Shown here: one piece after another, positions 37,691-64,000 of the stretch
Layout: every line of letters begins with the position of its first letter
Numbering within the stretch: the first letter of the stretch is position 1
From: Flaccisagitta enflata
Taxonomy: Eukaryota
NCBI GenBank assembly: GCA_965153355.1
Contig: OZ231126.1
Location: 46,314,001 to 46,378,000 of the forward strand
Length of the DNA: 64,000 nucleotides
Direction of reading: 5' to 3'
The notes under the pieces: generated by a model
The model's database searches: none
The model's input: only the letters and a program-made list of their open reading frames with translations
Told to the model about the DNA's origin: nothing
Made by a program: the position numbers and the translations under genes

Positions 37691-40088
37691 TTACCCTAAT
37701 GACTCCCAGGCCTCCTCTGGTTGAGGTTTTTTTGCCGGTTCTTGGTTGGAAAGCGAAGATGACGGTCGGGAATCGCTATCTTTTACGGCCGGCCCACTCG
37801 AGTTGAAAGCAACATCACTGCAAAATATGGAAAATCGAAGATGACTGGTACTACTACTAGAGGTTGAATGAAGATAATCACTCCTTACGAGTGTCTGTTC
37901 AATTGTATGCCGTATAACTAGATCACCGATGGCAGTGCCGTACCTTGGTTCGGCCAACTGTGCAACGTGCTGTTTGTAGTAAGCGTCGGCAGAAGGGGCA
38001 GTTACCCAACCTTGCTGACGAATTTCTAGTAGACGCAGGACTAAGAGACGAATGGCTCGAACCCGGTTCGCCGGAATGTGAGGGGAATGGATGAACCTCC
38101 GCAACGCTCCGAATAACTCGTTCACAATATCTGGGGGGAGGAGGAAAGAGAGAGAGAGAGAGAACAAGGCCAACACCTATAAGTCGCGTGCGAGACTTAA
38201 ATATATAATCGCCTAATTATAGAGATCGTTATTTCCTGTAATGACGATAATGACAATAATTACCTATTGACCTATAATTGCCGATAATGACCTATAATTA
38301 CCTATAATCACCCATAATGAAATAATGACCAATAAGTACCTATGAAGACCTATCATTACCTACAATTACATATGGACCAATGATTACCTATAATGACGTA
38401 TGATTATCCATAATTACTCATAATTACCTATAATAACATAATGACCTATAATTACCTATAATGACCTATGATTACCTATAATTACCTTTAATTACCCATA
38501 ATTAAATAATGAACTATAAGTACCTATAAAGATCTATGATTACCTATTATTAAACATGGACCAATAATTTCCTATACTGACCTATGATTACCCATAATTA
38601 CCCATAATTACCTATTATAACTTAATGACCTATAATTACCTATAATGACCTATGATTGCCTATAATTACCTATAATTGCATAATGACCTATAATTACCTA
38701 TGATTAGCTATAATTACCTATAACTGAATAATGACCTACAATTACCTAAAATTGTCTATTGACATATAATTACCTATAATGACCTATAATTACCCATTAT
38801 TACTAATGATTACATAATGACCTATAATTGCCTTTAATGACCTTCGATTACCTATAATTACCCATAATTGCATAAAGACCTTTAATTACCAATAATAACC
38901 TATAATGACCTATAATGACCTATAATGACCTATAATTACCTATAATTACAAAATGACCTATAATTGCCTATAATTATCTATAATTATCTATAATTACATA
39001 ATGACCCATAATTGCCAATAATGACCTATAATTGCCAATAATGACATGTAATTGCAATAATGACATGTAATTGCAATAATGACATGTAATTGCAATAATG
39101 ACATGTAATTGCATAATGACCTATAATTACTTATTATGAACCATAATTACCTATAATTACAAAATGACCTATAATTACCTATAATTATATATAATGGCCT
39201 ATAATTTCCTATAATTACCTATAATTACCTATGATTACATACTGACCAATAATGACCTATAATTGCATAATAACCTATAATTACCTATAATGACCTTTAT
39301 TTACCTATAATGACCTATAATTGAATAATAACCTATAATTGCATAATAACCTATCATTGCATAATAACCAATAATTACCTATAATTACCTTTAATCACCT
39401 ATAAAGACCTATTATTACCCATAATTACCTATAATTACCCATAATTACCTATAATTACCTATCATGACCTATAATGACCTATAATTGCATAATAACCTAT
39501 AATTACCTATTATGACCTACAATTACCTGTTATTGTATAATGACCTATAATGACCTATAATTACCTATGATTACCCAAAATTGCATTATGACCTGTAATT
39601 ACCTATGATTATGTAAATAAAAATTGACTTATACTGCCTTAAATTGACTTATACTGAGTTAAACTGACTTAAATTGACTTGAATTAACTTAAAATGACTT
39701 AAAATGACCTATATTGACTTAAATTGACTAAAATTCAATAATGACTCAAATGACTTGATTTGACTTAAATTTGACATAAAATGACTTAAATTGACTTATA
39801 CTGCCTTAAATTGACTTATACTGAGTTAAACTGACTTAAATTGACTTGAATTTACTTAAAATGACTCAAAATGACCTAGATTGACTTAAATTGACTAAAA
39901 TTCAATTTTGATTAAAATGACTTAATTTGACTTAAAATGACTCAAAATGACTTAAAATGATCTAATTTGACTCAAAATCAATTGACTTTAAATGACTTGA
40001 TAGGAATAAAACAAATAAAAAAAGTAAAATGGGGACCGACCGACCAACCGACGGACGGACAAAGCGGGGTATAGAGTCGCGTGCACGC

Positions 40089-40140
<52 letters not shown>

Positions 40141-40151
40141 CGAGTGAGCGA

Positions 40152-40207
<56 letters not shown>

Positions 40208-40823
40208 GAGAGCGAGTGAGCGAGTGAGCAAAAGAAAAAGAAAGAACGGAAAGAAGGAAGGACAGAAGCATGGGAGAGCTGAAAAGATGTCAAAGAGCGA
40301 GAGGTAGAGACGACACGACAACACATGAAAACAAGGAAATCCTCCACGAACCTGTATGAGCTTGAGAGGGAATGGGGATTGTGAAAGATCGGTGTAATCA
40401 TGACCAGGAAGAAGATGATCTTACCGGAATGAGAAGCTTCCAAAGCGGCGCCATATGAAAGGAGGAAGGTTGAGAGTTGGAGAAGTTGTTCGATTGTTGC
40501 ACAGCCGGATTTTAATGCTTGTATCACAGATACTGGTAAAGATACGTCAGGACCTGAAAGGGAAAGTGTGAGAGGGAAAGAAGAGTTCAGGATTGACGGA
40601 AATGCGTCTGTAAGTTGATAACCGACAGAAAGCATACGTCCATTGATTATCCACAAAAATTTTATGACTTACCTAAACTGGCGGGAAAGGCCACTTGGGA
40701 AGGTGCCGAGACTGGAGGCGTGGGATTTTGCTTTCTCGCCGTCACCGAGGCAGCGCCAACTCTTCCTACTTTACTGTCCAACTTAACACGTGCCCCTCGG
40801 CCTCGGCCCAACGAAGTGGACAT
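37691..40823 (-). CDS. Small protein with N-terminal GRGRG and a partial MIF4G-like domain (PAIP1/CTIF/MIF4GD-like); 3' end uncertain
   Basis: Exons 40823-40673 (MSTSLGRGRGARV...), 40553-40425 (GPDVSLPVSVIQALK...LSYGAALEASHS) and 38130-37691 (DIVNELFGALRRFI...IRLLVLRLLEIRQQGW...ADAYY) join in phase at GT-AG sites. RxLxLxLxExRxxGW..YY resembles the last MIF4G helix. A probable in-frame intron spans 37943-37818. The gene ends either at TAA 37691 or splices on from GG|gtaagt at 37695. Confidence 0.72.
38164..40090 (+). mobile_element. Non-autonomous Helentron/DINE-like element (family A) containing a ~1.75 kb 10-bp satellite
   Basis: 5' AACAAGGCCAACACCTATAAGTCGCGTGCGA, then (ATAATTACCT/ATAATGACCT)n and (AATTGACTTA)n arrays, GACG/GACC microsatellite, and 3' AGTCGCGTGCACGCGA. 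The ends match the 28380 copy. Confidence 0.75.
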
Positions 40824-41303
40824 GATTAAGGGAAATAAGTTACACACCAACACTTAACCTTGAAAACAAACAAAAACCGATAAACAAAAAGAGGATGCTT
40901 AAAAATAACTGGAGGCACTACTCTAATGTAAGAGAGAAGGTGGGGGGGGGTGTAATAACGGGAGGCACGCGACGAATCAGTTACAAAAGAAAGTTAGGCT
41001 GACGCATGGCACATGATATGAGACCAAAAACAAAACAAAACTAAAACTAACATGTAAAACGAGCAAGGTATGAAAAGAAGCAAAGGCGCGGTTGGTCGAA
41101 TAAAACGGAAAATTTGATTCAACAAAAAAGTTCAATCCGGCTTGGAGCAGAAAGATCGGAAATAACAAGCGACCAACGCGCCTGTAATTGTCCTACGAAG
41201 TACACGTAGAAAAGTAGCAACAATGCTCGACAGCTTGAAAGCCCCATGGCTACAAACAAAACGAATAACTGATAAAGATGCAAAAACAAAGCTTCTTATC
41301 TTT

Positions 41304-44300
41304 CTAAATCAACGACTTCAGAACGTCCATTTTCTTGGCCATTTCTTCGATCTTTTTGGAGGCTTCGGCGTTTTTCTTCTCCATCTCAGCCAATCTTTCC
41401 TTCAGGCTGTGGTTTTCATCCTTCAGGCTTCGATAATCTTCGTTCGTGGCGACAACCGTTTGGTCTTCCACCGGGGCCAGCTTTGGATTCGTAGAGGCAG
41501 CGACGGCCGGATTCGCCTCGACGTTGTTGTTCAAATCCACGACGTTGTTGTTCAAATCCACGACGTTGTTATTCAAATCCACGACGTTGTTATTCAAATC
41601 CAAGACAGTGGCGGAAGTGGATGGCTTGGTAGTCGGCCCCGCGTTCCTAATTTCGTCTTCCGCCAACTCGAGATAGCCATCGTTTCTTAGCGACAAAGCG
41701 ACATCGCTGCCGTCGACTACCAAACTCACGATCATCGTAGGAATGGCGCCCGTGGAATCGATTTCGTGACATCGAACTGCGACTTCCGCGTTGACGATAT
41801 CGCTGAGAATCTGGCTGATGTCGGATCGAGGCCGAACAACCCCTCGGAGGGCGCAAGGAGCGCAGAGAGCCGGCAATTTCAGCAAATCGTTTGGAATGTC
41901 GACGAGATCCGTCGGAAGCAAAACCGCAGAATTGCCGTAGTCCACGAACCAAACTTTGATCTTGTCTGAAAAGGGCGGAAAGGGAAGCGGAAGCGTTTAA
42001 CAATTATGGTAGATCTTTTACAGCGCTCAGCGTATTGTAACGTGAGAGTTGAAATAAGCTGTATACAAGATTCACCATCGCAACTACCTGGTTCCACGTC
42101 TTCAAAAGCTGCAGTTATCACAGCGCGATAGAGCTGTGAAGAGAAAAGAAATTAGAAAATTAGTTTCGTACCTCCGCGTCCCACGATTTTAAGAAAAGAT
42201 TGAGGTGCCTTTCATTTTTAGGGACGGAGGGCAAATTTTTGGTATCGGTGTCATATCTTTATAGATATCTTTTTAAATTTCAAATCTCAGATTATCTGAA
42301 CCAGTTTCCCGCGTTGAGCTCGCATATTCGTAAGTAGCAAGACAAAAAAAATCCACTTCTGGGCACCCGTTTTCATTTTTTTATAACTTTTTGCTTGTAG
42401 AAACCTTTGTCAAAATGATGTAACAATGATGTAACAGATGCTCTTAACGAAGGTATCTCATGTAAATTTCAGAAAAAAGAGAAATTTTTTTCTCTCTAAT
42501 GTTGTCATGGAATGTGTTCTCAAAGGTCAGGAAAGATATGACCGCTCTGCCATCTCATAACTTAATAGGAAATTCTGATATGCCCTCCTTTTCAGATGAG
42601 TCATTTTTTCCACTTTCTTTGGAGAACTTTTGACTATATACAATTCACGTTTATTTTTTTTGTAATGTAACACGTGGAGAGCACAAAATTGGTACATTCT
42701 ACAAGAATAATGCTCGACCTTACCAACAAAATTGATTTTGACCCCTTTCAACGAAAAAGATTTGATTTTTTGAAGCCAAACTGAATTTCGGACAAACGCG
42801 ATTTTCGTATTTATCAACATTTTTTGATTTGTCCCATCCCTGTCTCGTGTCATTAATGATGTTCTTATTTCTTACCAATAAAAGCTGATGACCTCATTCT
42901 TCTCCAGACACTTCCTAATGACGGGGGCTTTCAATCGAAATGAAATTCACCTCTAGTTTCGTTTTTTTCCACCCACTTAAGAGGCCGAGACGGAATTTCG
43001 GACAAATGGCTATTTTCGTATTTATCAACATTTTTACCGCTAGGCCAAGACGTGAGAAATCGTCCACTCTAACGCTCAGAAAACGCTAAGAAACATGTTA
43101 AAGATTCATGAACAGTCACAATTAGTTCTGTAAAGGCTTCAGGATGTTATTTTTGCATGCTGCTGTTTGTTGCAGCACAGTTGCAGCACTTTTGCAGCAC
43201 AATTTAAGACATTTCCGCAAATAGTATTTTTCTGTCAAAGATTGGTCTCTTCCGTTGGTCTTGGAGCATATAAGCATTTAAGTATAATGCTTGTTGGTCA
43301 TGTGCGGGCTTACAGTAACACATGCAGTACAATTGCAGCACAATTGCAGCATATTTGCTGCACATTTGCGAAAATCTTTTTTTCGAATTCATCTTTTCCC
43401 GTTGGCCTTTGAGTTCTGAAATACATTTGGGAATTGATAGTCATGTTGAAGACTAGAACAATAAGTTATCACACGCAGCATGATTGCAGCACATTTGCTG
43501 CATATTTGCTGCACACACTGAAAATTGCCGTTTACAAATTAGTTCTTTATGTATATGGTGCCTTCTATTTCTAGGGCAAATTTCTGTGATTTGTGTCATA
43601 TTTTTGTTGAAAATTTGTCAAATTTCCTATGTCCTATTTTCTGAGCCAACTTCTCACTTTGAGCTCGAATAAATGTGAGTAGTAAGACGAGATAATTCCA
43701 CTTCTGAACCCCAATTTTCAATTTTTTATGTATTTTTGCTTATACGATCATGCGTCAAAATGATGTGACAATAATGTAGCAAATGCTGATTACGAAGATA
43801 TCTAGAAAGAGGGGCTATTTTCTTTCCTAATATCATCATAGGATGTTACCTCAAAGATCTGCCTGCTTTCCCAACTGATAACCCTTTTAAAAATCACGAT
43901 GCGCCCTCTTCACCAAAATGAAGACTTTTTCCGTACTTTTCGGACAACTTTTGACTAAGCTCATACTACGATAATTTTAACAAAAATGCCACTTTCTCCC
44001 CAAAAGCTTTGTAATTACGAGGGCTTTCAATCGATATCAAAATAGCCATGAGCTTCCTTTTTTTTCTCCCTCTGTATAGACTGAAACTGAATTTCGGACA
44101 AATGCGATTTTCGTATTTGTCGACAATTTTACCGCAAAACCCGGAAAAAAGAAATGCTCCACTCTTTGAGGTTCAAAAGACACAACGGAACGAACTTGAG
44201 ACTCCTGAATAGTCACCATCAGTTGTGAGAAGGCTTCAAGATGTAATTCTATGCGTGCAACTGCATGCTGCAGCACAGTTGCAGCACATTTGTCGCAAAT

Positions 44301-47300
44301 CTACAGCATAGTTTAAGATATAATTTTTTTTCTTCAAAAGTAGTTCGCGATGGTCCGTAAGTATGTAAGAGGGGTTGGAGGCTTGTTATGCACGTGTAAG
44401 CCTAAAAACCCATGTGCAGCACATTTGCAGCATCAATGCAGCATACACTGAAAATCTTAATTCATCAATTCTATCTTTTCCCATTGGTCTCTCAGAGGTT
44501 TAGAAAGACGTTTGGGGATTGGATTTCATTTTGAAGACTAGAATGACATATATTGCATGATTGCAGCAAATAATGCATTTGGGTGTGTCAATATGCAAAA
44601 GTATTTTTGATCAGATCATCAACATTAGGGAATGTAAACAAAAGAATTCTAAGATATTTAGCATTTTTGTTTTTTCAAATTTCATTCATCTTCCTTTTTT
44701 TAGCGCAAGAAAAGATTGACAAAAATATATATACTTCCAGTATCTGCACCTAGATTTGGTGAAAATAAGACACATGATTTATGCAGAAAAGATAAGTTTT
44801 TATCTTTTTTTATAGATTTTGTGATAAATGAACAATATTTATTCGGTAAAAACTAGAATTAGCACTAAGATATAGTAGATCTCGTCTAGACTTGAGATAA
44901 CGGGGGCAAGCATTGTGGAAAGACAAATGAAGGCAGGGGAGCGATATTTGGATCATAGAATAATCAAAGGATGATTAATTCCCCATGATAGCTGGTTGCC
45001 ATGGAAACACATTTCCATGTATTCTCGCTGAAGTATCAATATTTTGAGAGATTTTTTTAGGGAACATTGCTTAAAATAACTTTCCCACAGTATGTTCTGT
45101 AAGAATGTCGCTCGTTTGGCCGTTGCTAGGGAGCGTATCCATGTGTGACAACCCCTAGCAACCGCTAAATGAGCAATATTCTTACAGAACATACTGTGGG
45201 AAAGTTGTAGCAAATTTTATTTTAAGCAATGTTCCCTAAAAAAATCTCTCAAAATATTGATACTTAAGCGAGAATACATAAAAATGTGTTTCCATAGCAA
45301 CCAGCTATCATAGGCAATAAAGCATCCTATTATTAGTCTATGTTTGAAATATCACTCCCCTGGCTTCATTTGTTTTCCTACAATACTTGCCCCCGTTATC
45401 TCAAGTCTAGACGAGATCTACTGTATTTATATATATAAACTTGATTATATTCCTGAGCAATAATGCTGATACAGAATCATTAACACAGCAATATACAAAT
45501 TAGCGGCTAAAAAGAGGTATTGAAAAAAACAGAAGATGAATGAAATTTGATAAAATAAAAACGCAAACGGTTTTAATATTTACTAATTAATGCTGTCTAA
45601 TGTTGATGGTCTCATCATAAAACCTTTTGCATATTGACACACCCAAATGCTGCATACACTGAAAATTACTGTTCAAAAATAATGTCTTTTCCCTATTAGT
45701 TTTTTTTCCAGGATCATCAATTCAAATCATTTTTGTGTGGTCAATAGAGTTGATAGTCGAAAAAGCGCCAGATAGTCTGTGGTATCAATTGTCTAAAAAT
45801 TGATATATGAATAGCGGTCAGCGGTACCCGTGCCCTGCTTCAGTGGTTTGTGATCAAAGTTGAGGGACGAACAGGGCAGCCATCCCAAAGGGGATGAAAT
45901 CCTGTTGAACAGAGAGAATCCGTCCATCCATCTGTGTCTGTCTGTCTGTCCATCAAATGATGAAATAATGCAAAATTCCCATTGAATATCACGCAAAGTT
46001 GAGGAAAAAATGAAATAATGCGAATTTACATGGAAAATGGAAAGTTTGAGGAAAATGAAAAAATAAGGAATTCTCAATAACATAGGAAATTGATGAAACA
46101 AGTAACGCAGGGTCGCACTAGTGTTGAAGACGGGTGGTCAGGGGCATCCAACCCTAATCCAATCTCCAACTTTTACGCCTAACACAGAAATTATCCAAAA
46201 CGCTTGTTTTTCCACTTTTTTATTCAATCATCACAGAAGGACCAATGGACCAACAGACCGACACCCAATGGAGTTGCGTGTTCACAAATAAAAATGAGAT
46301 TAGACCGTACAGCAGTGATAAATTAGGTTAACTCTAGCATTTAGGCAGGAGCAGTAAAGCAAAAACTACCGTTAATGCCAAACAACATCTCTCGCTATAC
46401 CCAAACTAAAATAAATGGAAAGGGCCTTGTGAGCCCTCACTGACTAGCTACTACGCGCATCACTCCCAGTTTTACATAAAACAGAATCTAAATAATATTT
46501 TTTTTTCAATCTAACCCAAAAGAAAACTGTTTACTAAAACTAGTTAAGAGTAAATGACACGTCACACGTCACACTGCAGTGACTACGGCTACTATAATCG
46601 AGTGAACAGTTAGAGCTTATATACATGTATAATTAGGCATGTGAGTGCATATATATTGATCTTTCGTACCAAAGACATGGAGCAAGGGTTGCTTATCAAT
46701 AGTCATGGACGTTGTTTCCACAATTGAACAAAGGATAAGTTATCTTTGCGGTCACAAACGCGAAAGGACTGATTCTGACGAGAATAGCCTAATTTGTATA
46801 GTCCGTCAGAAAAACTCGTCTTACGCGAGAAAAAGAGCCCATTAAGAAAATCGGATTGTGAATTTTATTAGCTCAAACATCATATTAACTGAAAATAAAA
46901 AGAAATCCAAGGATTTCTCGTTTCTAATTTTGCCGAATTTTTTACCTGGGTTCCACCCCTATTCATGAAAGGCACCTTGATCTCTCAAGATCATATGCAG
47001 AAATTTTAATAATTTCACCTGTCCCTCGAAAAGAGCCAAAACGGCTGCGCCGCGTCGTAACTGGCGTTTTTGATCTTCGAATATGCCTCTCCTGGTCATC
47101 AGCTCTTGGGTGGCCCCGAGTATGACCTCTTCCATTCCGGCGTAGTTGGGCAGATCGCTTGACGGTTGCATCAAGAGAGCGATATCTTTGACACTGGCGA
47201 CGTTCATGACGACGTTGTTGCTCTCTGCGCCGACTTGCAAATAATTCACGACGATTTTCTTCTCGGGACCAGCTGGCAAGATCGTCGACGCTGGAGGGGT

Positions 47301-50300: not shown

Positions 50301-50513
50301 GACGACGGCGCGATAAAACACCCCCTCAAATTGGCTCAGGACCAGGGCGCCTGTTGGGATATTGTTTAAGAGATTCAGGGCAGAAGGTGGGAAAAAGTTT
50401 GGAAAACAGAAGAGAGCATTTTTCATTTGAGAAAAGAATGAAGGAGAGAGGAAAGAAAAGAGAGAAAAGCAAGAAAAAAGAGAAACACAAAGAGGGAAGA
50501 TAGGAAAGAAGGA

Positions 50514-50557
<44 letters not shown>

Positions 50558-50715
50558 AAAAGAGAGAAAAAGAAAGAACGAAAGAGGGACAGACATAGAA
50601 AGACAGAGAAAGAAAGAAAAAAAGAAAGGAAGAAAGGAAGAAAGAAATGAAAGAAAAGAAAAAGAGAGAAAAGAAAGAAAAGAGAGAAAAGAAAGAACCA
50701 GAGCAAAAAAGAATG

Positions 50716-50758
<43 letters not shown>

Positions 50759-50778
50759 AAAAAAGAAAAAAAGAAAAA

Positions 50779-50824
<46 letters not shown>

Positions 50825-53800
50825 AAGAAAACAAAAGACAACACTATTAGGTCCATCTTATAGTCCCACGGATCTGATTGCCGTGGGACAAAAAGAAACA
50901 AAGAAACACTGAGGAAGAAACAAATAAACAAAAGGAAAGAAAGAGAAAGAACGAAACGAAGAGAAAGAGACAAATAAAAACAAGGAAAGAAACGAGTAAA
51001 AATAGAAAGAAAGAAAGAAAGAAAGAAAGACAGAAAAAAAGAAAGAAAGAAAGAAAGAAGCACGCGATAATCATGGATAATAGACAAAATGTTTTCTTCT
51101 TCGTCTTTTATTGCTTGATATTCCCTAAAAAACCATACCTGGCTCCGGTTTGCTGGCAGATTCAGCAAAGGACTTGGCCTTTTCCACTTGGGTATCTACG
51201 ACGGTTTGTAATTTCACGGCCGCGACGATACAATCCTCGTTCTGGAGGTAAAATTCGCCGGGAGTGTTAAAATGCGACAGCAGAAATTCTCCACGATCTG
51301 GGAACGGAAATTCGGCCAATTCAACCACAGCCAAATCTTTGGCTGGGGCAGCCGAGGCAACTGGGACGGTAGGTTCGGCTGGAGCCGATGGGGCCGGATC
51401 TTGAGCAGCCACTGGTTGGGACGCCGCTGGCTTTGTTGCCGGCGTCGGGCTGGCTAAAACTGTTTCGGATGGCGACGCAGATTTCGCTTTTAAATAACCG
51501 GCGTCACCCAAGCAATCGATCACAGACACCCCGTTTACGTCAACGATCTTCGCAGCGAGAGGAGTGGACTGAGTAGTAACAAAATAAAGATTTTATGTTA
51601 GCCATGAGCTGTCGTCTGTGAAAATCGGCAATTAACACACTCATTTGTCAAAAACAGAGCAGCTCGGCTCAGCTCCGTGCCAAACAATGCGAACAACATC
51701 TTAATGAAGGGTAGAGGTTTTCCCCACTGAAGAGTAATTGATCTTTTAATTTTTCATTAGTACCTGGTTCTTAGGGTTGATGATGCTCAAATCGAAGGAA
51801 GGTGCAGGGTTCTTCATCCAACTTAGGATACTGTCATCCATTTCGCATGAACTGACGCTATACTTGCTCGACGAAGACAACTGCATCAAAAGGGCGAAAA
51901 GGTTACATAAAATAAAATAGCATCGTAGAATAGGATATGGAAGATAAAAGCGGAAATTCAAAAATGTGGATAAATGAGGTTGCGGAAAATGGGGAGGACC
52001 TGGAGAATAAGGAGGAAGAGAATGATGCAATGAGGAAAACGAAAATTTGGGAGGTAAAAAATGAAGTTTGATGAGAAAGTGGGTTGAGGAGCAACTGGAT
52101 TGAGGAGGAACACTAACGGGAAGAGAGTAAATGTCAGGAGAAACAATAATATCAGGACAGAGGAAAATCAGAACAGAAGAGAGTGAAACAACGAAAAAGG
52201 TAGAAAACAGGGGGGGGGAAGGCTAAAATCTTTTTAGCACATTTTAGCAAATTTTAGCACATTTTAGCATATTTTAGCAGATTTTAGCATGATTTTGAGA
52301 TAAGGGGATCCCTGCCACCAGCTAAAATTTGCTAAAATGTGTGAAAATTTGCTAAAATCTGCTAAAATCTGCTAAAATGTGCTAAAAGTTAAAGAAATCT
52401 TATCACCAGCCTTCAACCACAATAAAGGCTGAAATATGCTAAAATATGCTAAAATATGCTAAAATTCAGTAAAAATCTTGAGAATTTCTTAAAAATCAAT
52501 GTGCTAAAATCTGCTAAAACCTTTTCATCCTGTCAACCAACTAGCAATATAAAAATGCTCCCAGGTACTACAATTTTAGCATATTTTAGCATATTTTAGC
52601 ACATTTTAGCACATTTTAGCATTTCGGTGGTAATTTTCTTTTTGAATATTTTAGCAAATTCTAGCACCTTTTAGCATGACAATTAAATACATAAAAATGG
52701 TCCATTTTTTTGCAATTTTTGCACTTTAGGCCATTTTCCACTCATCATTTCATCAAAAAAAGCAAATTCTGCGCAGATTTTTAAAAGAACATTTTAGCAC
52801 ATTTTAGCACATTTTAGCACGGGAGATAAGGGGATCCAATGCTAAAATGTGCTAAAATGTGCTAAAATGTGCTAAAATGTGCTAAAATATGCTAAAATGT
52901 GCTAAAAAGATTTTAGCCTTCCCCCCCTGAGAAAAGGAAGAACAAGGAAAAATGGAACAAGTCAGTCATCCTATTATCAAATATGGTCAGCGGTGCCCGT
53001 TTCCCTGCTCTGCTGCTGTTTCAAAGTAGGGTGGTTGTCCTGTAGAACACGGCCCGGGTTGAATTTCTATACATCCAAAGAAGAAGTAAGTGGGTCGGGG
53101 AGGGTCTGATTGTGCCCCAGAGTAGACCTAAGACGGCTGGTCTCAGGCCTGAGAGGATTTCAGGCCTGTAAGCCTGTGAGGACCAATTTTAGGCCAGTTA
53201 GGATTGATTTCAGGCCTGTGAGCTGATTTCAGGCGTAAGAGTGTAAGGGATGGAAAACTGTAAAAGCAGCATAACGGAAGAATGTGATGATTTTAGGTTC
53301 CAGAGGCTAGATTTGGGCTTTGGGCCTCGGGGAAAAAGGGGGGGGCGCTATCCAAAAAAGTAGGAACGGGAAAAGAAGGACAAGGTAGAACAAAACGGAG
53401 GAAATGAGAAAGGATATGCGAACTGAGGGAGCTAGGAAAAGAAGGAAGATGAAAAGGAGAAACGGAGTTGAAATGGAGAAAAAGAAGGAAATTGAAAAGG
53501 AGAAAAAGAAGGAAGTTGAAAAGGAGAAATCAGAGAATGAGGAAGAAATAAATTGGGGAGAATGAAAGGTGTAGAAAGATGACCAGATATGAGTGAGACA
53601 AATTTCTGCAAATCATAACTCACCTTCACTGAGAAACAGAGGCGAGGATATTGAGCAAGTTTCTCAGATAGACGTTTCAACTGCGACTTTGACACGGTGA
53701 CAAAGTTTCCGTAGTCGATGAAGTGCACTTTGAAGTTTCCGTCCACGATCTCCAAAATTTCTGACAAAGGATCAAACAATAAGTCGGGACAACATCAGGG

Positions 53801-56800: not shown

Positions 56801-59800
56801 TAAGGAAAGAAAGAAGAAAAGAGAGAAGGATATAAAGAGATGAAAGAAGGGGGAAGATGGGAAGAAAGAAGGGAAGAAAGAAAAAAAAAAGATGAGAAAG
56901 GAGAAAAGGAAGGAGGCAAGAACGAAGGATTGAAAGAAAGAAAGAAAAAAAGGAAAGAGAAGGAAAGAAGGAAAGAAAGAAGGAAAGACAGAAGGAAAGA
57001 AGGAAGGAAAGAAAGAAGGATAGAAAGAAAGAAGGAGGAAAGAAAGAAGGAAAGAAGGAAAGAAAGAAAGAAGGAAAGACAGAAAGAAAGAAAGAAGGAA
57101 AGAAAGAAGGAAAGAAAGGAGAGAAAGAAGGAAAGAAAGAGTGAAAAAAAGAAGGAAAGAGAGAAGGAAAGAAAGAAGGAAAGAGAGAAGGTAAGAAAGA
57201 AGGTAAGAAAAAAGGAAAGACAGTTAAGAAGGAAAGACAGAAGTTAATAAAGAAGGAAAGAAGGAAGGTAAGAGAGAAAGAAGGAAAGACAGAGAGAAGG
57301 AATGAAGAACAGAAAGAAGGAACGAAAAACAGAAAGAAGGAATGAAGAACAGAAAGAAGGGAAGAAAGTAAGGAGGAAAGAAAGAAGAAGTCCTGAGAGA
57401 AAGAGTGACGGAAAGAAAGAGAGATGGAAAGAAAAAAAGATGGAAAGAAAGCAAGCTGGAAAGAAAGTAAGCTGGAAAGAAAGTATGATGGAAAGAAAGT
57501 ATGATGGAAAGAAAGTATGATGGAAAGAATGTATGATGGAAAGAAAGTATGATGGAAAGAAAGAAGGAAAGAAAGAAAGATGGAAAGAGAATGATGGAAA
57601 GAGAATGATGGAAAGAGAATGATGGAAAGAAAGAAAGATGGAAAGAAAGGTGGAAAGAAAGAAAGAAGGAAAGAGAGAGAAGAGAAAATCTGAAAGAAAG
57701 AAAAGAAAAAAAAGACAGAATGGGAGAAAAAAAAACTATTTTAAAATGAGCAGGCTCCCTTACCTTCGTTATCTCATCGTTTACATTGACCATGAGCGCC
57801 TTGTTGTCATCCGTGAGTGGTTGCACGAAGACATTCTGCCAATCTTCAATATGAGGAATCAAGGCTGGAAAACTTTTGACGCTGCTCAATTGTTCTACGG
57901 CGAAGAGAGGGACGGACTCGGCCATAATCTTTGGTGGCGGTGCGACTTGAACGGTGGGAACTGGAGCTTGGGTCGTGGCGTGTCCAGAGGACACCAACAA
58001 GTCGGCAAGAGAGACACCATCTCCTCGCTTGGCGATGACGGAAACGACGCCATCGGTAGATTTTCCTACGACTTGAACGGACACGGGTCCGAAAATGGGA
58101 AATTGCTCCTCCACATAAGCCGATGATTCCGGCGCCCATTCCAAAGCGCCTTCCGGCAGCGGATACAGAGGCGGAGACGTCTCGCAGCAAATGGCGAGTG
58201 AGGGTAAATTGGAGTGGAGCGAAGTTGCCGTCATGGGTCGTAACTGAGCGGGATTAAGCATCGCGTCTTCGCCGTAATCGAGGTATCGGATGGAGACGAG
58301 TCCCGATGAGTCGACGGGTGAAGTGACTCGAGCGCGAGACCACTGACCATCGGCGACCACCCAAGCGGCAACAAAATCGCCTGAACAGATAAGAGGATTA
58401 AACAGAAAATCATCAAATTACGTTCATTTGTTATTTTGTGTTTTCATTGATTAACCAACCAAATCATCATACCGACGGCAGGGGCGAAGTTTGGATTCGG
58501 TGGTGAACCGGCATAAATACGATTCAACTCCTCGCTCACGCCGGCGAATCTTCCTATGACTTCGTCATCTACTTTCCAAATGGAAAAGCGACCGGGCTTG
58601 GCGTGATAGACGATCGTGGCTTCGATCATGTCGCCGATGTTTACGTCATCGCCGGCGGAAGAAAGATGAAGAGGAGGTGGCGATGGTTCTTTAGGGGGCC
58701 GCTGAGCATCGACGGGTTCGGACTTGGCCGATATCTCCGGTGGACGAATCCAATCGGCGTATCCAGCGTTGACGAAGACGGTCGCCAAATCGTCGTCGCC
58801 ACATCTGATGTCGACCTGAAAGAGACGAATATTAAGGAAAAGTGGGAATACATGAAGCTGAATTAAAAACTATGTTCTTGACGTGAAACCACTTGATATC
58901 TGATCAACTCATTCCCTCGTTATCATTTAACAAAACAGATATCAGGTTTAAAGTTACTTCGTCATTACCCGTCATTACGAGGTTCAACCATGTTTCGTAC
59001 CTTGTGTCTCGGAAAAAGAGAGTCCGCCGCTTGATTTTCTCTGACGACAATTTTCAATTCCTTGAGCAGCAATTGTTTGAACAACGCCTGAACGTCGGCG
59101 GGCCAAACCAGCGCCCCATTCTTGGGAACAACGTTGGCCAAGGCGCAAGGAACAACTCTCGAGGGCAATTCGGCGAATTCCGCCGGCAAAGGGCGAATGT
59201 CGGACAACTGCGTCGAGGCCGAGTTACCGTAATCGGTGAACCACAAAATCGGGTTGCCATCGACCGTTTGCGAGCCCGGTTTAATTACGATGGCGCGAGA
59301 AAACTGCTCCTCGAAAAACGCCAGTACGGCGCGACCAAGGCCACAAACGTCGTCGTCGTTACCACCTGCTGCAGTGATAGCCGGCATTTGCCGTAAAGAC
59401 GTCGTCAAACCGGCTAGAGTGGACTCCATGGAAATATAGCGCACGTCGTCGGCCGACTCGAGAACGGCGAAATCTCCCGGGCCGGTGGCGTCAAAAACGG
59501 ACAGAGAAGCTGAGGAACCCACTTTCAAGGTGCGGACTTCAACACGCGGCGAAGACGTCGCGGACGCGGCAACTGACAGAGGGGAAAATGGCCGAACGGT
59601 AGAAGGAATCGAATAATAATTCACAGTAACGAGCGATACGTCGATTCAGTTCTTGAGAAGAGCGATGTGAGACAATCCAGACCAGAGTCGAAAGTTGTAA
59701 AATGAAAGCAAAGTGAAAAAGATAGACGTGGAAGAACGCCAAAATTTTGAGAATCATACCGGGACCTTCCCTGGAATCCTTGACCGATTGGAGTTTCTTC

Positions 59801-61309
59801 TTTGCGCAGACGTTGCGATGAACGGGCCAATCTTCAGTTTGACACTCTCGAGAGCAGTAAGGCTCTTTGCACGATCCACACTGTTGTCCCGCTTGCTTAC
59901 CACATCCGACGCAAATGCGTTGACTCCTGAGTCTCGGAGAAGCGGATCGCTGCCGATGGCAAAGAGAGAGGGAAGGGTACATGACAAATTTGAGGGGATT
60001 ATTTCATATGTTCCAAGAATACAGTTCATATGTTTTAAAATGGTATGAAATGGTTTAAAATGGTTTAAAATGGTTTGAAAGGTTTTGAAATGCTTCCAAA
60101 TGTTTTCAAATATTTTCGAATGTAATAAAATTTCATACGTTCCAGGAATTCAGTTCAAATTTATCATGAGAGACAGTAAGTCTAGTCAATTTAGGATAAA
60201 TATTGTACAAAGATGAGGACAAGGAACAATTACGATAATAGATGAACAAGGGCAGCACCTATAACATGCTTTAAGTCGCGTGCGGGACATAAACAACTTC
60301 AGATGACTTAAATTGACTTTAAATGACTCAAGATGACCTGAATTGACTTAGAATGACTTAAATGACTAAATTGACCTCATTGACTCAAGTGACATAACAT
60401 AACATAATATGACTTAAAATGACTTAGAATGATTTTGAGTCACTTATAATGACTTCAAGTCACTTATGACTATGGCATTTGGGAAGGAGCTGTGAGCCCA
60501 AAAGACTTAAAAACGCCAAAAAGTAAAAAGGGGACCGACTGACCAACCAACCGACAAAGCGGGGTGTAGAGTCGTGTTGCACGCGACTAAAAAGGAGGAA
60601 ACGCGCAAAAGCAAGAATCGAGAAGAGCAATAAACAGATGAATGCATAAAGAGATGAAATCATTGAGTCGAGAGAACGTCACAAAAACTAAGAAGTACGA
60701 AACCTGAGCTTGAGACATCTCGGTAGCAAAGGCTTCTTCCTCCATCTTTTGTTGCTTCCTTTTGGCAAGCTCCTCGTCGGACAGCGCAATGGCGACTTTA
60801 ATTTGATGAGCTTCGTCAATTTTGGTTCCATTGAGCGCCTCGATGGCGGCGCTGGCTTCTCGAAAACTGCCGTATGTGACCCACAGACGGGACAACTGTG
60901 GATTCGTCGCGTCGGAACTGCGACTGATCTCATTAACTTCTCCATATTTGGCAAACATTTCTTCCAGTGAAGTTGTGGTGCAGCGGCGTGGAATACCTAC
61001 GGAAAGCAGAGGTGTACTCAATGTTAACCGTAACAGGAAAAAATATGAAGTGGTAGCATTGAACCATCACATCACATCCACGGCAAAAATACCGGTTATG
61101 TACAGCTTGGTGATCCTCTTTTCAGCCGCGTCCCTCCGCATTATCTGCACTTGACGAGCATCACCATTAGCGACGACGCCATTCAACCTTTGCTGCTGCG
61201 CGTGGAGATCCGCGCCGATCCCGCGTTGATACGAGTTGAAGTTGGCATTGACGTGGGCATCCGCACTCGGATCCCACGTGTCCAAACGGACGGAGCCACA
61301 CACGGACAT
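41304..61309 (-). CDS. Multi-Tudor protein: RRM + MYND zinc finger + 8 extended Tudor domains + C-terminal coiled coil (Vreteno/TDRD1-like), ~2220 aa
   Basis: 19 phase-consistent GT-AG exons: 61309-61093, 60996-60704 (RRM), 59949-59760 ([30 protein letters not shown]), 59572-59001, 58815-58473, 58380-57764, 56278-55583, 54800-54255, 54001-53863, 53760-53624, 51880-51764, 51568-51139, 50350-50159, 49794-49501, 48379-48060, 47965-47828, 47732-47019, 42133-42088, 41965-41304. Eight [FY]xD[YF]G[NE] Tudor signatures, each preceded by an xxRA strand. Kozak-like CCACCGCCATG start. Confidence 0.92.
44873..45423. mobile_element. Near-fully palindromic Tc1/mariner-type MITE (TA TSD), nested in a TIR element at ~44575-45650
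   Basis: TA|TAGTAGATCTCGTCTAGACTTGAGATAACGGGGGCAAG...CTTGCCCCCGTTATCTCAAGTCTAGACGAGATCTACTG|TA. The outer element has TIR GCATTTGGGTGTGTCAATATGCAAAA / TTTTGCATATTGACACACCCAAATGC. Confidence 0.88.
48405..49403 (+). mobile_element. Helentron-like element (family C) in intron 14 of the Tudor gene
   Basis: 5' AACAACAGTCCTCGAC; 3' hairpin GTCCTCGACG-taaactgat-CGTCGAGGAC followed by an A run; internal 18-bp and ~165-bp tandem repeats. Confidence 0.6.
48437..48613. repeat. 18-bp minisatellite (GTCTGACCCGGCTACTCA) x~10
   Basis: Near-perfect tandem copies with no spacers. Confidence 0.95.
52208..52929. mobile_element. MITE with CAGGGG termini and a 6-bp TSD (AGAAAA)
   Basis: CAGGGGGGGGGAAGGCTAAAATCTTTTTAGCAC / GTGCTAAAAAGATTTTAGCCTTCCCCCCCTG; AGAAAA at 52202-52207 and 52930-52935; many TTTTAGCA repeats. 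Confidence 0.88.
54880..55565. mobile_element. Related MITE with a 6-bp TSD (TAAACA)
   Basis: (A)AGGGG...AAGCTAAAAATGTTTTTAGCAG / CTGCTAAAAACATTTTTAGCTTTCCCCCCTG; TAAACA at 54874-54879 and 55566-55571. Confidence 0.82.
56335..57720. repeat. ~1.4 kb purine-rich (GAAA/GGAA) low-complexity tract in Tudor intron 6; a similar tract lies at 50430-51060
   Basis: The plus strand is overwhelmingly A/G. Confidence 0.95.
60246..60592 (+). mobile_element. Family A element in intron 2 of the Tudor gene
   Basis: AACAAGG...AGTCGCGTGCGGG, (AATGACTTA)n array, GACC microsatellite, AGTCGTGTTGCACGCGACTAAAA. Confidence 0.7.
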
Positions 61310-61646
61310 GGCGGTGGAAGATGTGGATTAATCGCGTATGGTTGTAACGTGTAAGCGTTTCTACTTATTATGTTGATGCCCTTAAATGGGTATAGGTTAG
61401 AACTCTGCAAAGACACCAAGCCGTAAATTTATGAGGCATAGTTGTGAACGGAAAATCGTGAGTGCGCGTGTTACGAAATACTACCAGTCACGTTAACAAT
61501 AACAAGCGACTGATGAATAAATATTCCAACAAAAACAAAGATAGAATTTGTAGCATGGAGTACAAAGTGATTGACAAGCAGGTATTTGGAAGAATGGCAC
61601 TTGAATGAATAAGAACAACGTTACTTCAACTGATCAGTTCCACGCG

Positions 61647-62717
61647 TCATAACATTTCCGCCAGGTCCATAATGGAACCGACGTAAAAATCAGGCAAAAG
61701 AGAACGTAACGGCATTCCGTGGTGGGTTCCACCTTCATTAGACTGAACAATCTGCATGATGTCGACTGACGTGACGCCCGAGAGTACGGCGATGGACGCG
61801 ATGCCATTTCTTCTGGCGAACCCCACATCTGACCTCAAACTGTCGCCGACCATGCAGGCCCTCGTGGCGTCGAAATCCGGCACATTTGCGCAAATCGCCT
61901 CCAAGATGGCGGGGCCGGGTTTCCCGATGTAGGTCGGCTGTCTATCCGAGCAAGTGGCTATGCATTGTGCCAGACTCCCGGCTATAGGTTGAACGCGTCC
62001 CGGGGAGAACTCATAACCAGTTTCCCACGAAGTAGCGAGAAAGTGACACCGCCAATCACCGACATCGTCGCATCTCTTTAAATAACTCGCGGCTTTCGTC
62101 AGCTTCATGAAATTAAAATGCTCGTCCTGGCCGACCACAACGACTTTGACATCGTCAACCAGCGGAATAGCGAGAATGTCTGCCAACTCGTAAGAAGGCG
62201 GAGTGTTATCCGCGCCATTACCAAAATGATTGATTCCATGAGTTGTGAGTTCTTCCTCCAACCCTTTGGATCCCATCAAATACACCGAGTCGTTCGGCTT
62301 CTCCAAAAGCTGCTCCAACTTAAAGCGCATGACTCGATTGACGCTGAAATTTTCGTTTGGAGAGCAAACGTAACCCGTCATCCGATGAATTTTGTCGTTG
62401 AGCGCTTGCGTCGAGGGAATGCTGTTATTGGAGGCGAACAAGATGGCTTTCCCTTTGTCTCTTAACTTGCCCAGTGCGTGCTGCACGCGATCAAACCTTT
62501 GAGCGTGATCAACGTGCCAAATCACGCCGTCGCAATCCAAAATGAGGGTGTCGAAACGATCTAATATCTCCAGCGCGTTTCTTTTCGTGATTTCAACCGG
62601 CCATGAAGATGAGTGAGAAGAAAAGTTTTTGACTAGAGTTGCGGACAATGCATGGAAGGCACATCGGAATGGCGCATTCACAAGTGTCATGTTAGGTTTT
62701 GCTAAAAAAGCTGCCAT
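61647..62717 (-). CDS. HAD-superfamily subfamily IIA phosphatase (PGP/G3PP- or pyridoxal phosphatase-like), intronless, 356 aa
   Basis: Uninterrupted ORF with HAD motifs I (LILDCDGVIW), II (ASNNS), III (IGKPG) and IV (MVGDSLRSDV, followed by VLSGVT). The N-terminal ~40 aa lack acidic residues, so a targeting peptide is possible. Confidence 0.93.
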   Translation of the reverse strand: MAAFLAKPNMTLVNAPFRCAFHALSATLVKNFSSHSSSWPVEITKRNALEILDRFDTLILDCDGVIWHVDHAQRFDRVQHALGKLRDKGKAILFASNNSIPSTQALNDKIHRMTGYVCSPNENFSVNRVMRFKLEQLLEKPNDSVYLMGSKGLEEELTTHGINHFGNGADNTPPSYELADILAIPLVDDVKVVVVGQDEHFNFMKLTKAASYLKRCDDVGDWRCHFLATSWETGYEFSPGRVQPIAGSLAQCIATCSDRQPTYIGKPGPAILEAICANVPDFDATRACMVGDSLRSDVGFARRNGIASIAVLSGVTSVDIMQIVQSNEGGTHHGMPLRSLLPDFYVGSIMDLAEML

Positions 62718-62775
62718 TCTAAAAAAAGTGTATTTCTGGCGAGGGGAGAAACTGGGGGTGCATGAACATTAACAA

Positions 62776-62855
62776 CTTCATTTGAAATATATTATCCGTT
62801 TGACAACGAGCTCCTATGAAAAGCCTTTCATCATCAAACATCATGCCAAATGAAG
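62776..62855 (-). promoter_or_regulatory. SECIS element (type II) in the SPS 3' UTR
   Basis: Sense strand: CUUCAUUUG-gc-AUGA-UGUUUGAUGAUG-AAA-GGCUUUU-cau-AGGAGCU-CGUUGUCAAACG-GA-uaauauauuu-CAAAUGAAG. It shows a 9-bp helix I, AUGA/GA core, 12-bp helix II, unpaired AAA and an apical mini-stem, and lies ~220 nt after the SPS stop. Confidence 0.92.
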
Positions 62856-63075
62856 ATGAAGTTGAATCAAGCATTCTGGTGTACATCATGAACCATTATT
62901 CCATTAACAATTGCAATTCCAATCTACTGACCAACCATGATCAATATAAAAAGTTTCATTTGAATTAAATCAAAAAAATTGAGACCAATAAAGTAAAATC
63001 AAACGACTAGCGGTTGGCTCATTGAACAAGAAACAGGAGCGCACAAAAACTGGAAATGTGAACGCCGAAAGTCCT

Positions 63076-63528
63076 CTACCACAACTCATCTTCCCTCTCG
63101 ACTGAAGGAACTTCCGTGATTCGCGGATTGTCAATGATTCGCGCAGTTCTTCCACCACACACAACCTCGCCAACGACCCTGATAGTGATAGACGATCAAG
63201 TTTCAGAGATCAGCAAATTATACTGTACACCGCGCATTTTCTTGATGATAAAACAGTCGCCACAATGACCCAGCTTTTCTATGAGAACCTCAAAGCTTTA
63301 AGAAATACACAAAAATCCTCACCAAGCCGGCAATCCTTCCTCCTCACAAATATCTTTCACAAAAGCATCCGCGGCTTCCTTTGGTATGCAGAGGAGCAGC
63401 CCTCCACTGGTCTCCGCAGAATATCCTTGCAGCAACCCAAATGCGATGCCACAAGTTTTGGCGACCGGAACCATTTTAGCGATGATCGGAAGATTATCAA
63501 TCACAAACTCAACTTCGTTTTTCTGAAC
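63076..63528 (-). CDS. SEPHS2: Selenophosphate synthetase (selenide, water dikinase), last two coding exons; the 5' part lies beyond the window
   Basis: Exon 63528-63323 (tttcag|[19 protein letters not shown]...[17 protein letters not shown]...EEGLPA-TG|gtgag) splices in phase to exon 63178-63076 (tatcag|[37 protein letters not shown]). ETSGGLL and RTARIIDxPRIxEV are SelD/SPS C-terminal motifs. The SPS2 (Sec) call rests on the downstream SECIS; the Sec UGA itself is outside the window. Confidence 0.93.
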
Positions 63529-64000
63529 CTGAAATTGATGTAGTAAATAAAGAGCAAAAGTCCTGTAGAACACAGGGGGAATCTGTCCATCCGTCCGTCC
63601 GTACGTCCCCCCCCTTCCCGCCTCACCCTCGGCTTCGTCTCCTTTGGGGCCCAAATCCAAACTGTATGGCCCAAATCCGAGCAAAATGGTCCAAATCCGC
63701 CCAAAATTGGCCAAATCTAGGCAAAATGGCCTGAGACCAGGTAAAATGGGCCTTAACTGGCTAAAAAACCTGAATTCTGGCCTGAGTTCTATCATCTTGG
63801 CCCCTTAAACTTAGATTCTGGCTCCAAAAACCCACATCCAAGCCTTAGAGACCCAGATCCTGACCTTTGGGACCCAGATTCTGACCTCCAAGACCTAGGT
63901 GCTAGCCTAAAAGACCTAAATCCTAGCCTCAGAGGACCAAATCCTGACCTCAGAAACTGAAATCCTTGCCTCTGAGACCAAGAATTTGGTCTCTGAGATC

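Follow-up and report, generated by a model that had tools for sequence, protein, structure and literature searches.

Four co-oriented genes on the minus strand

The window – the 64-kb stretch of Flaccisagitta enflata DNA analysed here – carries four neighbouring genes in the order SPS (C-terminus only), a HAD-superfamily phosphatase, a gene encoding RRM, MYND and eight Tudor domains, and a small gene termed gene D. A first-pass annotation made from the sequence alone had proposed that they form a single spliced-leader (SL) trans-spliced operon, and much of the layout on which it drew is confirmed. All four CDSs lie on the minus strand; the stop-to-ATG gaps of 358, 337 and 480 nt are exact, as judged from the stop and ATG coordinates; the spacers are free of repeats (all 51 tandem-repeat rows fall in introns) and contain neither AATAAA nor ATTAAA; and the three AG motifs put forward as acceptors are present, the last two being followed by in-frame stops (TAA at 61330-61328 and TAA at 40856-40854). 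The T-richness of the spacers is weaker than claimed: T makes up 39%, 34% and 43% of the three, against 33.5% of the minus strand over 36000-64000.

The last two exons of SPS lie inside the window, the upstream exons being past its end. The penultimate coding exon (63323 to 63530) yields an AIRS_C match (Pfam, E 1.5e-4) whose 22.4 bits fall slightly below the 23.1 cut-off, and three contigs (X2 rec13, X3 rec21 and X1 rec5) fit the exon to 63530 and continue beyond it into sequence outside the stretch. It is joined across the last intron (63179 to 63322; 144 nt, GT..AG), which was placed by contig joints with the frame checked against the sequence; one contig each in X1, X2 and X3 gives the joint as 63177/63322 (cut +1). 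The last coding exon (63076 to 63178) includes the TAG stop at 63078-63076, and a relative, P0044, aligns through it; the 3′ UTR follows, from 63075 down to 62733. A search for an SPS representative returned fragments or remoter proteins only. The earlier label of SPS2 selenoprotein finds no support within the window: the exon that would carry Sec (UGA) lies outside it, SECIS searches of 28 kb (E <= 1) and of 62700-63100 (E <= 10) returned no match, and a crude AUGA/GA helix scan of the SPS 3′ UTR gave no candidates, bearing in mind that divergent SECIS elements can escape such scans.

The HAD gene is a single exon encoding 356 aa (61647 to 62717; ATG 62717-62715, stop 61649-61647) with Pfam matches to Hydrolase_6 (E 2.2e-15), Hydrolase_like (E 2.6e-13) and Hydrolase. 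Judged by these domains its product is PGP/PDXP/4-nitrophenylphosphatase-like, and the named proteins among its 39 homologues are phosphoglycolate or 4-nitrophenyl phosphatases. Its seven nearest relatives (57-92% identity) are all marine records, while the best named match shares 35% identity: a pattern that fits a phylum missing from named protein sets. Within the CDS lies an optional in-frame intron, or exitron (62093 to 62221; 129 nt, GT..AG), whose joint at 62092/62222 is seen in X2 rec12; its 43 residues are absent from one environmental homologue (P0002) and present in another (P0001). Contigs cover the HAD 3′ UTR from 61646 to 61477 (X1 rec2 to 61477; X2 rec11 and X3 rec14 to 61501). 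The P0002 contig is 1252 nt long with an ORF of 1014 nt, so that no more than 238 nt can lie outside the ORF, and the 3′ end is bounded between 61477 and about 61409.

Beyond the second spacer lies a multi-exon gene (41304 to 61309; ATG 61309-61307, stop 41306-41304) that is, on its Pfam content, a multi-Tudor (TDRD-like) protein with RRM and MYND domains: RRM_1 (1.5e-9), zf-MYND (4.3e-9) and TUDOR matches in 8 of its 16 ORF pieces (E 2.8e-12 to 1.4e-5). One exon joint, 60717/59952, is seen in a contig (X1 rec1). A candidate acceptor AG at 61406-61405, read from sequence, lies in an interval (61010-61462) where depth is zero in all runs; the bounds on the HAD poly(A) site place that site 4-72 nt before this AG and no more than 168 nt from the Tudor ATG.

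The third spacer (40824 to 41303; 480 nt) holds a candidate acceptor AG at 40860-40859 and precedes gene D (37691 to 40823), with its ATG at 40823-40821 and likely exons at 40823-40673, 40553-40425 and 38130-37691, the splice sites being read from the letters themselves. The end at 37691 is uncertain, a relative (P0040) diverging at a possible donor near 37945. The product had been called MIF4G-like. All three exons gave no Pfam family at E <= 10, and thus no match to the MIF4G profile; the leads that point this way are weak, namely that the best PDB sequence matches are the MIF4G-domain proteins 4jhj and 2i2o (E 1.1 over 31 residues) and that an atlas cluster was returned at a score of 0.81. 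Gene D is possibly SLIP1/MIF4GD-like.

A spliced leader on the HAD mRNA within the SPS 3′ UTR

Evidence for trans-splicing came from P0002, an ORF from a metatranscriptome that shares 96% identity with the HAD gene of the window and begins MGEANFYYFTCLNFSPHQKYTFYRMAAF. When the chaetognath leaders SL3.1 and SL3.2, taken from Table 3 of Marletaz et al. 2008 (PMC2481426), where an SL3 form is listed for Flaccisagitta enflata, are joined to the window at 62751 and translated, the result is EANFYYFTCLNFSPRQKYTFFRMAAF. The start of P0002, EANFYYFTCLN, is the exact translation of SL3.1/3.2, all 11 leader-derived residues agreeing; this one short peptide is enough to place the DNA in Chaetognatha. 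Two Logan contigs from two studies (X3 rec17, 1139 nt, and X1 rec3, 256 nt) cease to fit at the same base, 62751, and run on into 20 and 21 unlike letters respectively. The leader is not encoded in the window: its 64 kb, which extend 1.25 kb upstream of the acceptor, contain no match at <=3 mismatches, and the leader peptide has no match in the window either. The HAD mRNA thus receives a published chaetognath spliced leader at AG 62753-62752, inside the SPS 3′ UTR, and starts with a 5′ UTR of 34 nt (62751 to 62718). At this junction the trans-spliced operon of the first-pass annotation gains RNA evidence; the acceptor it had chosen, at 62719, was misplaced, the leader being joined 32 nt further upstream.

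The upstream mRNA ends close by. A contig of depth 69.5 (X3 rec18) fits the window from 63070 to 62743, then passes through an allelic variant and closes with 21 untemplated A, placing the SPS poly(A) site at 62736-62733, right behind an AG (62737-62736) of which 13 of the 15 preceding bases are pyrimidines. Poly(A) follows one AG, and the leader was seen joined at another that precedes the poly(A) site by 16-19 nt. With the HAD acceptor ahead of the point where SPS is polyadenylated, the two mature mRNAs overlap: the SPS mRNA closes with the same 16-19 nt with which the HAD 5′ UTR opens, leaving no space between them for an intergenic promoter. The RNA in question is not that of the sequenced individual; it belongs to environmental relatives or alleles that share 94-98% identity with the window, and the one raw-read run (X9) returned no matching reads.

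It might be asked whether the P0002 leader and the breaks at 62751 are chimeric assemblies or clipped divergent alleles, given that the RNA evidence comes entirely from assembled environmental contigs and that the P0001 allele diverges immediately upstream of the HAD acceptor, but we think this very improbable indeed, for the full agreement with a published leader falls precisely at the AG boundary, the two further contigs, from other studies, break at one and the same base, and a contig reading through an allele should go on matching for 4 bases or more upstream of the acceptor. The P0001 contig itself (1702 nt with an ORF of 1125 nt; RNA or DNA) is collinear across the acceptor.

Extent of the transcription unit

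A central issue is the nature of the unit from which these mRNAs are drawn. We consider it likely that SPS and HAD form an SL-resolved transcription unit without an intercistronic region. RNA polymerase II would read through from SPS into HAD, a single promoter presumably lying upstream of SPS, and the precursor could then follow either of two routes: cleavage and polyadenylation just after AG 62737-62736, giving the SPS mRNA, or addition of the leader of about 33 nt at AG 62753-62752, giving a capped HAD mRNA. Since the acceptor comes 16-19 nt before the poly(A) site, one precursor probably yields one of the two mRNAs only; processing of SPS and HAD would thus be mutually exclusive. Trans-splicing by itself is no proof of an operon, given that it affects about half of the genes in chaetognaths. 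At the first junction the mRNAs overlap, by 16-19 nt, and no AATAAA lies within 40 nt of the point where the SPS mRNA is polyadenylated; at the second at most 168 nt separate the HAD 3′ end from the next ATG; at the third the gap between CDSs is 480 nt. Two accounts of the remaining genes have to be weighed.

According to the first, only SPS and HAD are operonic; the Tudor gene and gene D would each be transcribed from a promoter of its own, in the 337- and the 480-nt spacer, whether trans-spliced or not. In Paraspadella gotoi most trans-spliced genes are reported to lie outside operons (10,197 genes trans-spliced, about 18% of all genes operonic; PMC12460157), and RNA from the present locus points the same way: each of the three runs covers SPS and HAD, but the first Tudor exon has zero depth in every one, while the 24 contig pieces listed of 332 include a single piece of the Tudor gene (X1 rec1, joining RRM and MYND exons). 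Depth is nonetheless a poor measure here, the runs having been chosen by one gene, and a promoter would have scant room in the short interval between the end of HAD and the Tudor ATG. We judge this account to fall only just short of an even chance.

The second account holds that one polycistronic precursor serves all four genes, with leader acceptors near 61405 and 40859. What suggests this extent is the spacing: four co-oriented genes whose spacers lack repeats and AATAAA though neighbouring introns are filled with repeats, and a HAD poly(A) site close enough to the Tudor ATG to come within the P. gotoi rule of <250 bp (PMC12460157). The enrichment of germline markers that the same work reports among operonic genes would also fit a Tudor scaffold. 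Set against this, RNA depth is zero at the second junction, a compact promoter can fit in a spacer of 100-480 nt, and the 480 nt of the third spacer contain 8 AG sites with at least 11 of 15 upstream pyrimidines, so that any choice of acceptor there is a guess. We put the four-gene precursor somewhat short of an even chance.

A further reading dispenses with polycistronic RNA altogether: HAD would have its own promoter, inside the last SPS intron or 3′ UTR, and the leader would trim an outron from a unit that overlaps SPS. Monocistronic genes are commonly trans-spliced in chaetognaths, on the evidence given for P. gotoi (PMC12460157), and among the 24 listed of 332 contig pieces there is no RNA demonstrably spanning SPS and HAD. 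Yet SPS transcription must in any case cross the HAD acceptor, because this sits in the mature SPS 3′ UTR, and a like boundary has been accepted as operonic in Spadella and Ciona, as described in the reports concerned (PMC2481426, PMC1488885). We regard a separate HAD promoter as improbable.

Returning to the shared SPS-HAD unit, its boldest extension would combine an either-or switch between SPS and HAD on each precursor with continuation of the unit to the Tudor gene and gene D, processing rather than promoters setting the ratio of the four unrelated products. This is speculative and, in our view, unlikely; if true, SPS and HAD would share a post-transcriptional switch inherent in the layout, and a scaffold of the germline piRNA pathway would depend on a housekeeping promoter. 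There is no support for the functional link that the first-pass annotation had drawn from its operon between selenium metabolism, the phosphatase and a piRNA scaffold, and the selenoprotein label is itself unverified. Genes sharing an operon in chaetognaths, Ciona and nematodes often have unrelated functions.

Relation to known operons

The SPS-HAD pair is an ordinary case of an arrangement already published for chaetognaths and calls for no new mechanism. The nearest parallel is the RPS14-PCNA operon of Spadella cephaloptera, for which Marletaz et al. 2008 (PMC2481426) give a poly(A) site and an acceptor 3 nt apart: the phylum and leader family are the same, the downstream gene is trans-spliced, and poly(A) site and acceptor nearly coincide. 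The genes differ, the leader form here is SL3, and in F. enflata the acceptor precedes the poly(A) site by 16-19 nt, giving overlapping mRNAs, whereas those of S. cephaloptera are described as abutting. In P. gotoi, the account by Piovani et al. 2025 (PMC12460157) puts 18% of genes in operons – defined as same-strand genes <250 bp apart of which at least one bears a leader – and about half of genes as trans-spliced, and in what it says of operons gives an operon-specific leader as absent and germline marker genes as enriched. The present pair shares that layout in a different species.

Similarities extend to Ciona intestinalis, where Satou et al. 2006 (PMC1488885) described operons without intercistronic DNA, with an '...AG-poly(A)' boundary and no AATAAA within 40 nt, and where, according to the same report, one leader serves mono- and polycistronic genes and mutually exclusive processing was proposed. 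In both animals the upstream mRNA ends in AG followed by poly(A), and AATAAA is lacking within 40 nt. The tunicate, as described there, has an unrelated leader of 16 nt and polyadenylates the upstream mRNA at the very acceptor that is used; in F. enflata the acceptor used is a second AG, 16 nt farther upstream. The SL1-type operons of C. elegans are another known system; the characterised nematode cases in the sources cited have AATAAA, and phylum and leader are both different (PMC1488885, PMC7986045).

The locus thus provides a chaetognath operon boundary, resolved to the base, with overlap between a trans-splice acceptor and the poly(A) site of the gene upstream. This favours a picture of chaetognath operons as similar to those of Ciona that lack intercistronic regions, and the overlap raises the question of mutually exclusive processing. 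A practical observation also emerges from P0002: open-ended metatranscriptome ORFs can expose spliced leaders.

Gene order and spacers

The minus strand carries four genes at 37691-63530, and the first-pass description of their layout – short gaps, free of repeats and of AATAAA – proved correct. First comes the 3' part of a gene resembling selenophosphate synthetase (SPS), whose last two coding exons (63530-63323 and 63178-63076; Pfam AIRS_C, E 1.5e-4) are separated by a 144-nt intron seen in one contig in each of three metatranscriptome runs. It is followed by a single-exon HAD-superfamily phosphatase of 356 aa (62717-61647; Pfam Hydrolase_6 and Hydrolase_like) and by a long, multi-exon Tudor gene (ATG at 61309, stop at 41304) that matches RRM_1, zf-MYND and, eight times, TUDOR; the last was found by Pfam in 8 of the 16 ORF pieces tested. 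The fourth gene, here gene D, is small (ATG at 40823), and the splice sites read in it give likely exons at 40823-40673, 40553-40425 and 38130-37691. From stop to ATG the gaps measure exactly 358, 337 and 480 nt, with a T content of 39%, 34% and 43% against a background of 33.5%. AATAAA and ATTAAA are absent from every gap, and none of the 51 rows of a tandem-repeat scan falls in the three gaps, all being in introns.

The spliced leader on the HAD mRNA

Evidence that the HAD mRNA begins with a spliced leader (SL) came from P0002, an environmental ORF 96% identical to the window HAD, whose N-terminus reads MGEANFYYFTCLNFSPHQKYTFYRMAAF. Marletaz et al. 2008 (PMC2481426, Table 3) list the chaetognath leader forms SL3.1 and SL3.2 for Flaccisagitta enflata. 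With these forms placed in front of window position 62751 the translation is EANFYYFTCLNFSPRQKYTFFRMAAF, in which 11 of 11 leader-derived residues agree with P0002. When the forms SL1, SL2.0, SL3.3 and SL4.2 were translated, none yielded the N-terminal peptide of P0002. The leader thereby identifies the window as DNA of a chaetognath, probably a sagittid. The residues MG that precede the leader in this ORF are probably a trace of a cDNA-synthesis adaptor.

The same position is marked by RNA data, which consist of assembled contigs (the raw poly(A) RNA-seq run X9 contributed 0 reads) compared over 59500-64000. The stretch is represented in part in eight runs, drawn from three studies and all of them metatranscriptomes of marine or seawater samples. 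Two contigs, X3 rec17 (1139 nt) and X1 rec3 (256 nt), match the HAD gene as far as 62751, a position that directly follows the AG at 62753-62752; beyond it stand 20 and 21 letters, respectively, that are unlike the window and known by count only. The shared break at an AG argues for a splice junction, because allelic read-through – as in P0001, a second environmental relative whose 1702-nt contig, of RNA or DNA origin, is collinear across the HAD acceptor and some 370 nt longer than the mature HAD mRNA – would fit at least 4 bases further upstream. That the sequence joined at 62751 derives instead from a 5' exon spliced in cis was considered and rejected: it is identical to a published leader, and the 64-kb window contains neither the leader (0 matches with as many as 3 mismatches allowed) nor a match to its peptide. 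The HAD acceptor in use is the AG at 62753-62752, where leader and contig breaks coincide, and not 62720-62719 as first proposed. The leader that the first-pass annotation led us to expect is thus present on the HAD mRNA, in P0002, but joined at 62751 rather than at 62718 or 62735.

Wider searches were less productive. Among metagenome contigs, a scan with alignment A1 for those that encode P0002 and P0007 gave 317 pattern matches, none confirmed, and the exact SL3.1 pattern had 0 matches there. A query with residues 1-40 of P0002 for other proteins bearing the leader peptide returned only P0002; since P0001, which shares words there, was not collected either, the outcome carries no weight.

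The HAD protein itself has 39 homologous matches among 3389 candidates. Its seven closest relatives (57-92% identity) are all marine records, and the best named match, a Capitella teleta protein, reaches only 35%. Within the coding exon lies an in-frame 129-nt GT..AG intron (62093-62221, minus strand) that is removed in X2 rec12 and in P0002, with the loss of 43 cap-region residues, and kept in X3 rec17 and P0001; this pattern suggests an alternative 'exitron'. Environmental contigs also show indel polymorphisms in the 3' UTRs of HAD and SPS (at 61618-61642 and 62908), of 23, 1 and 6 nt, and differ from the window at 2-6% of bases; variation of this kind fits the high heterogeneity of populations that has been reported for chaetognaths.

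The boundary between SPS and HAD

X3 rec18, a contig of the SPS 3' UTR with a depth of 69.5, spans 63070 down to 62743, past which it carries an allelic version of the following bases and then 21 untemplated A. Since the genome has only AAA at this place, followed by T, the SPS poly(A) site is at 62736-62733, immediately following a second AG (62737-62736, minus strand) with pyrimidines at 13 of the 15 positions upstream. With the HAD exon starting at 62751, the mature SPS and HAD mRNAs have 16-19 nt in common, an overlap that leaves no intergenic DNA to house a promoter. Transcription of SPS has to pass through the HAD acceptor. Among the contig pieces listed, none provably covers both SPS and HAD.

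Trans-splicing of leaders and operons have both been reported in chaetognaths (Marletaz et al. 2008, PMC2481426). In Paraspadella gotoi, according to the account of Piovani et al. 2025 (PMC12460157), 10,197 of 21,072 genes are trans-spliced and 18% of genes are operonic; the operonic genes are enriched among germline markers, and there is reported to be no operon-specific leader. For Ciona (PMC1488885), the upstream mRNA is described as ending in '...AG' followed by poly(A), with no AATAAA, and mutually exclusive processing is proposed. The SPS-HAD boundary resembles the Ciona operons as there described, with an AG, then poly(A), and no AATAAA; it is also close to the published Spadella RPS14-PCNA operon, in which 3 nt lie between poly(A) site and acceptor. 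The sole slightly unusual feature is that the SPS-HAD acceptor is placed upstream of the poly(A) site and does not adjoin it. In each respect tested the SPS-HAD pair has the features of a chaetognath operon, an arrangement already published for the phylum. The AG at 62737-62736 could serve as an alternative, Ciona-type acceptor for the leader; its use as an acceptor was not seen.

Downstream junctions, gene labels and repeats

Coverage of the HAD 3' UTR extends to 61477, and depth is zero in all runs at 61010-61462, a range that takes in Tudor exon 1 and the candidate acceptor at 61405. The P0002 contig measures 1252 nt and its ORF 1014 nt, leaving at most 238 nt of UTR; together these values would place HAD poly(A) between 61477 and ~61409, give or take the 23-nt indel. 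A site so bounded would fall 4-72 nt before that acceptor, and no more than 168 nt would separate it from the Tudor ATG, a predicted spacing that satisfies the <250 bp rule for P. gotoi operons (PMC12460157), although spacing is not proof. In the third spacer eight AG sites have at least 11 pyrimidines in the 15 positions upstream, so the earlier choice of 40859 is arbitrary. An operon of all four genes we regard as possible, at somewhat less than an even chance; nothing supports the suggestion that the four products are functionally coupled.

'MIF4G-like', as applied to gene D, is a weak lead: Pfam gives no family at E <= 10, the two best PDB sequence matches, both zebrafish MIF4G-domain proteins, reach E 1.1 over 31 residues, and the atlas cluster named MIF4G scores 0.81, under the 0.9 level above which a match counts as more than a lead. 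The 3' end of this gene is uncertain within 37691-37950; its TAA (37693-37691) sits within GG|GTAAGT, and there are possible donors at ~37945 and ~37888 (minus strand), at the first of which the relative P0040 diverges. A search for proteins related to gene D whose N-terminus derives from a leader gave one 82-aa fragment only. The 'selenoprotein' label for SPS is not supported: the Sec position lies beyond the window, and neither Rfam nor a crude core-motif scan found a SECIS. A search for SPS representatives gave 317 matches; of the best 150, six were read – four short fragments and two longer, more distant proteins – and none of these six settles Sec/Cys status.

In the Tudor gene, a 21-nt tandem repeat (41519-41606, minus strand; 4.2 copies, 97% matches) within the final coding exon encodes a repeated NNNVVDL heptad. 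A further repeat, in an intron of this gene at ~60400-60700, occurs with many different flanks in three marine metatranscriptome runs, where its summed contig depth is ~200-1900; it is a transcribed, widespread repeat family. The miRNA-like Rfam matches at 52787-52892 and 63937-63989 lie within repeats, far under gathering scores, and were rejected; those to mir-96 and mir-3804 at 52787-52892 (32 and 29 bits, where gathering requires 65 and 90) fall on inverted arrays of 10-nt TTTTAGCACA-type repeats and are not credible miRNA genes. The region 1-37000 holds no convincing long coding ORFs and is mostly repeats, among them a recurring element that translates as ...VFYRTSSP.../...GRSVGPS....
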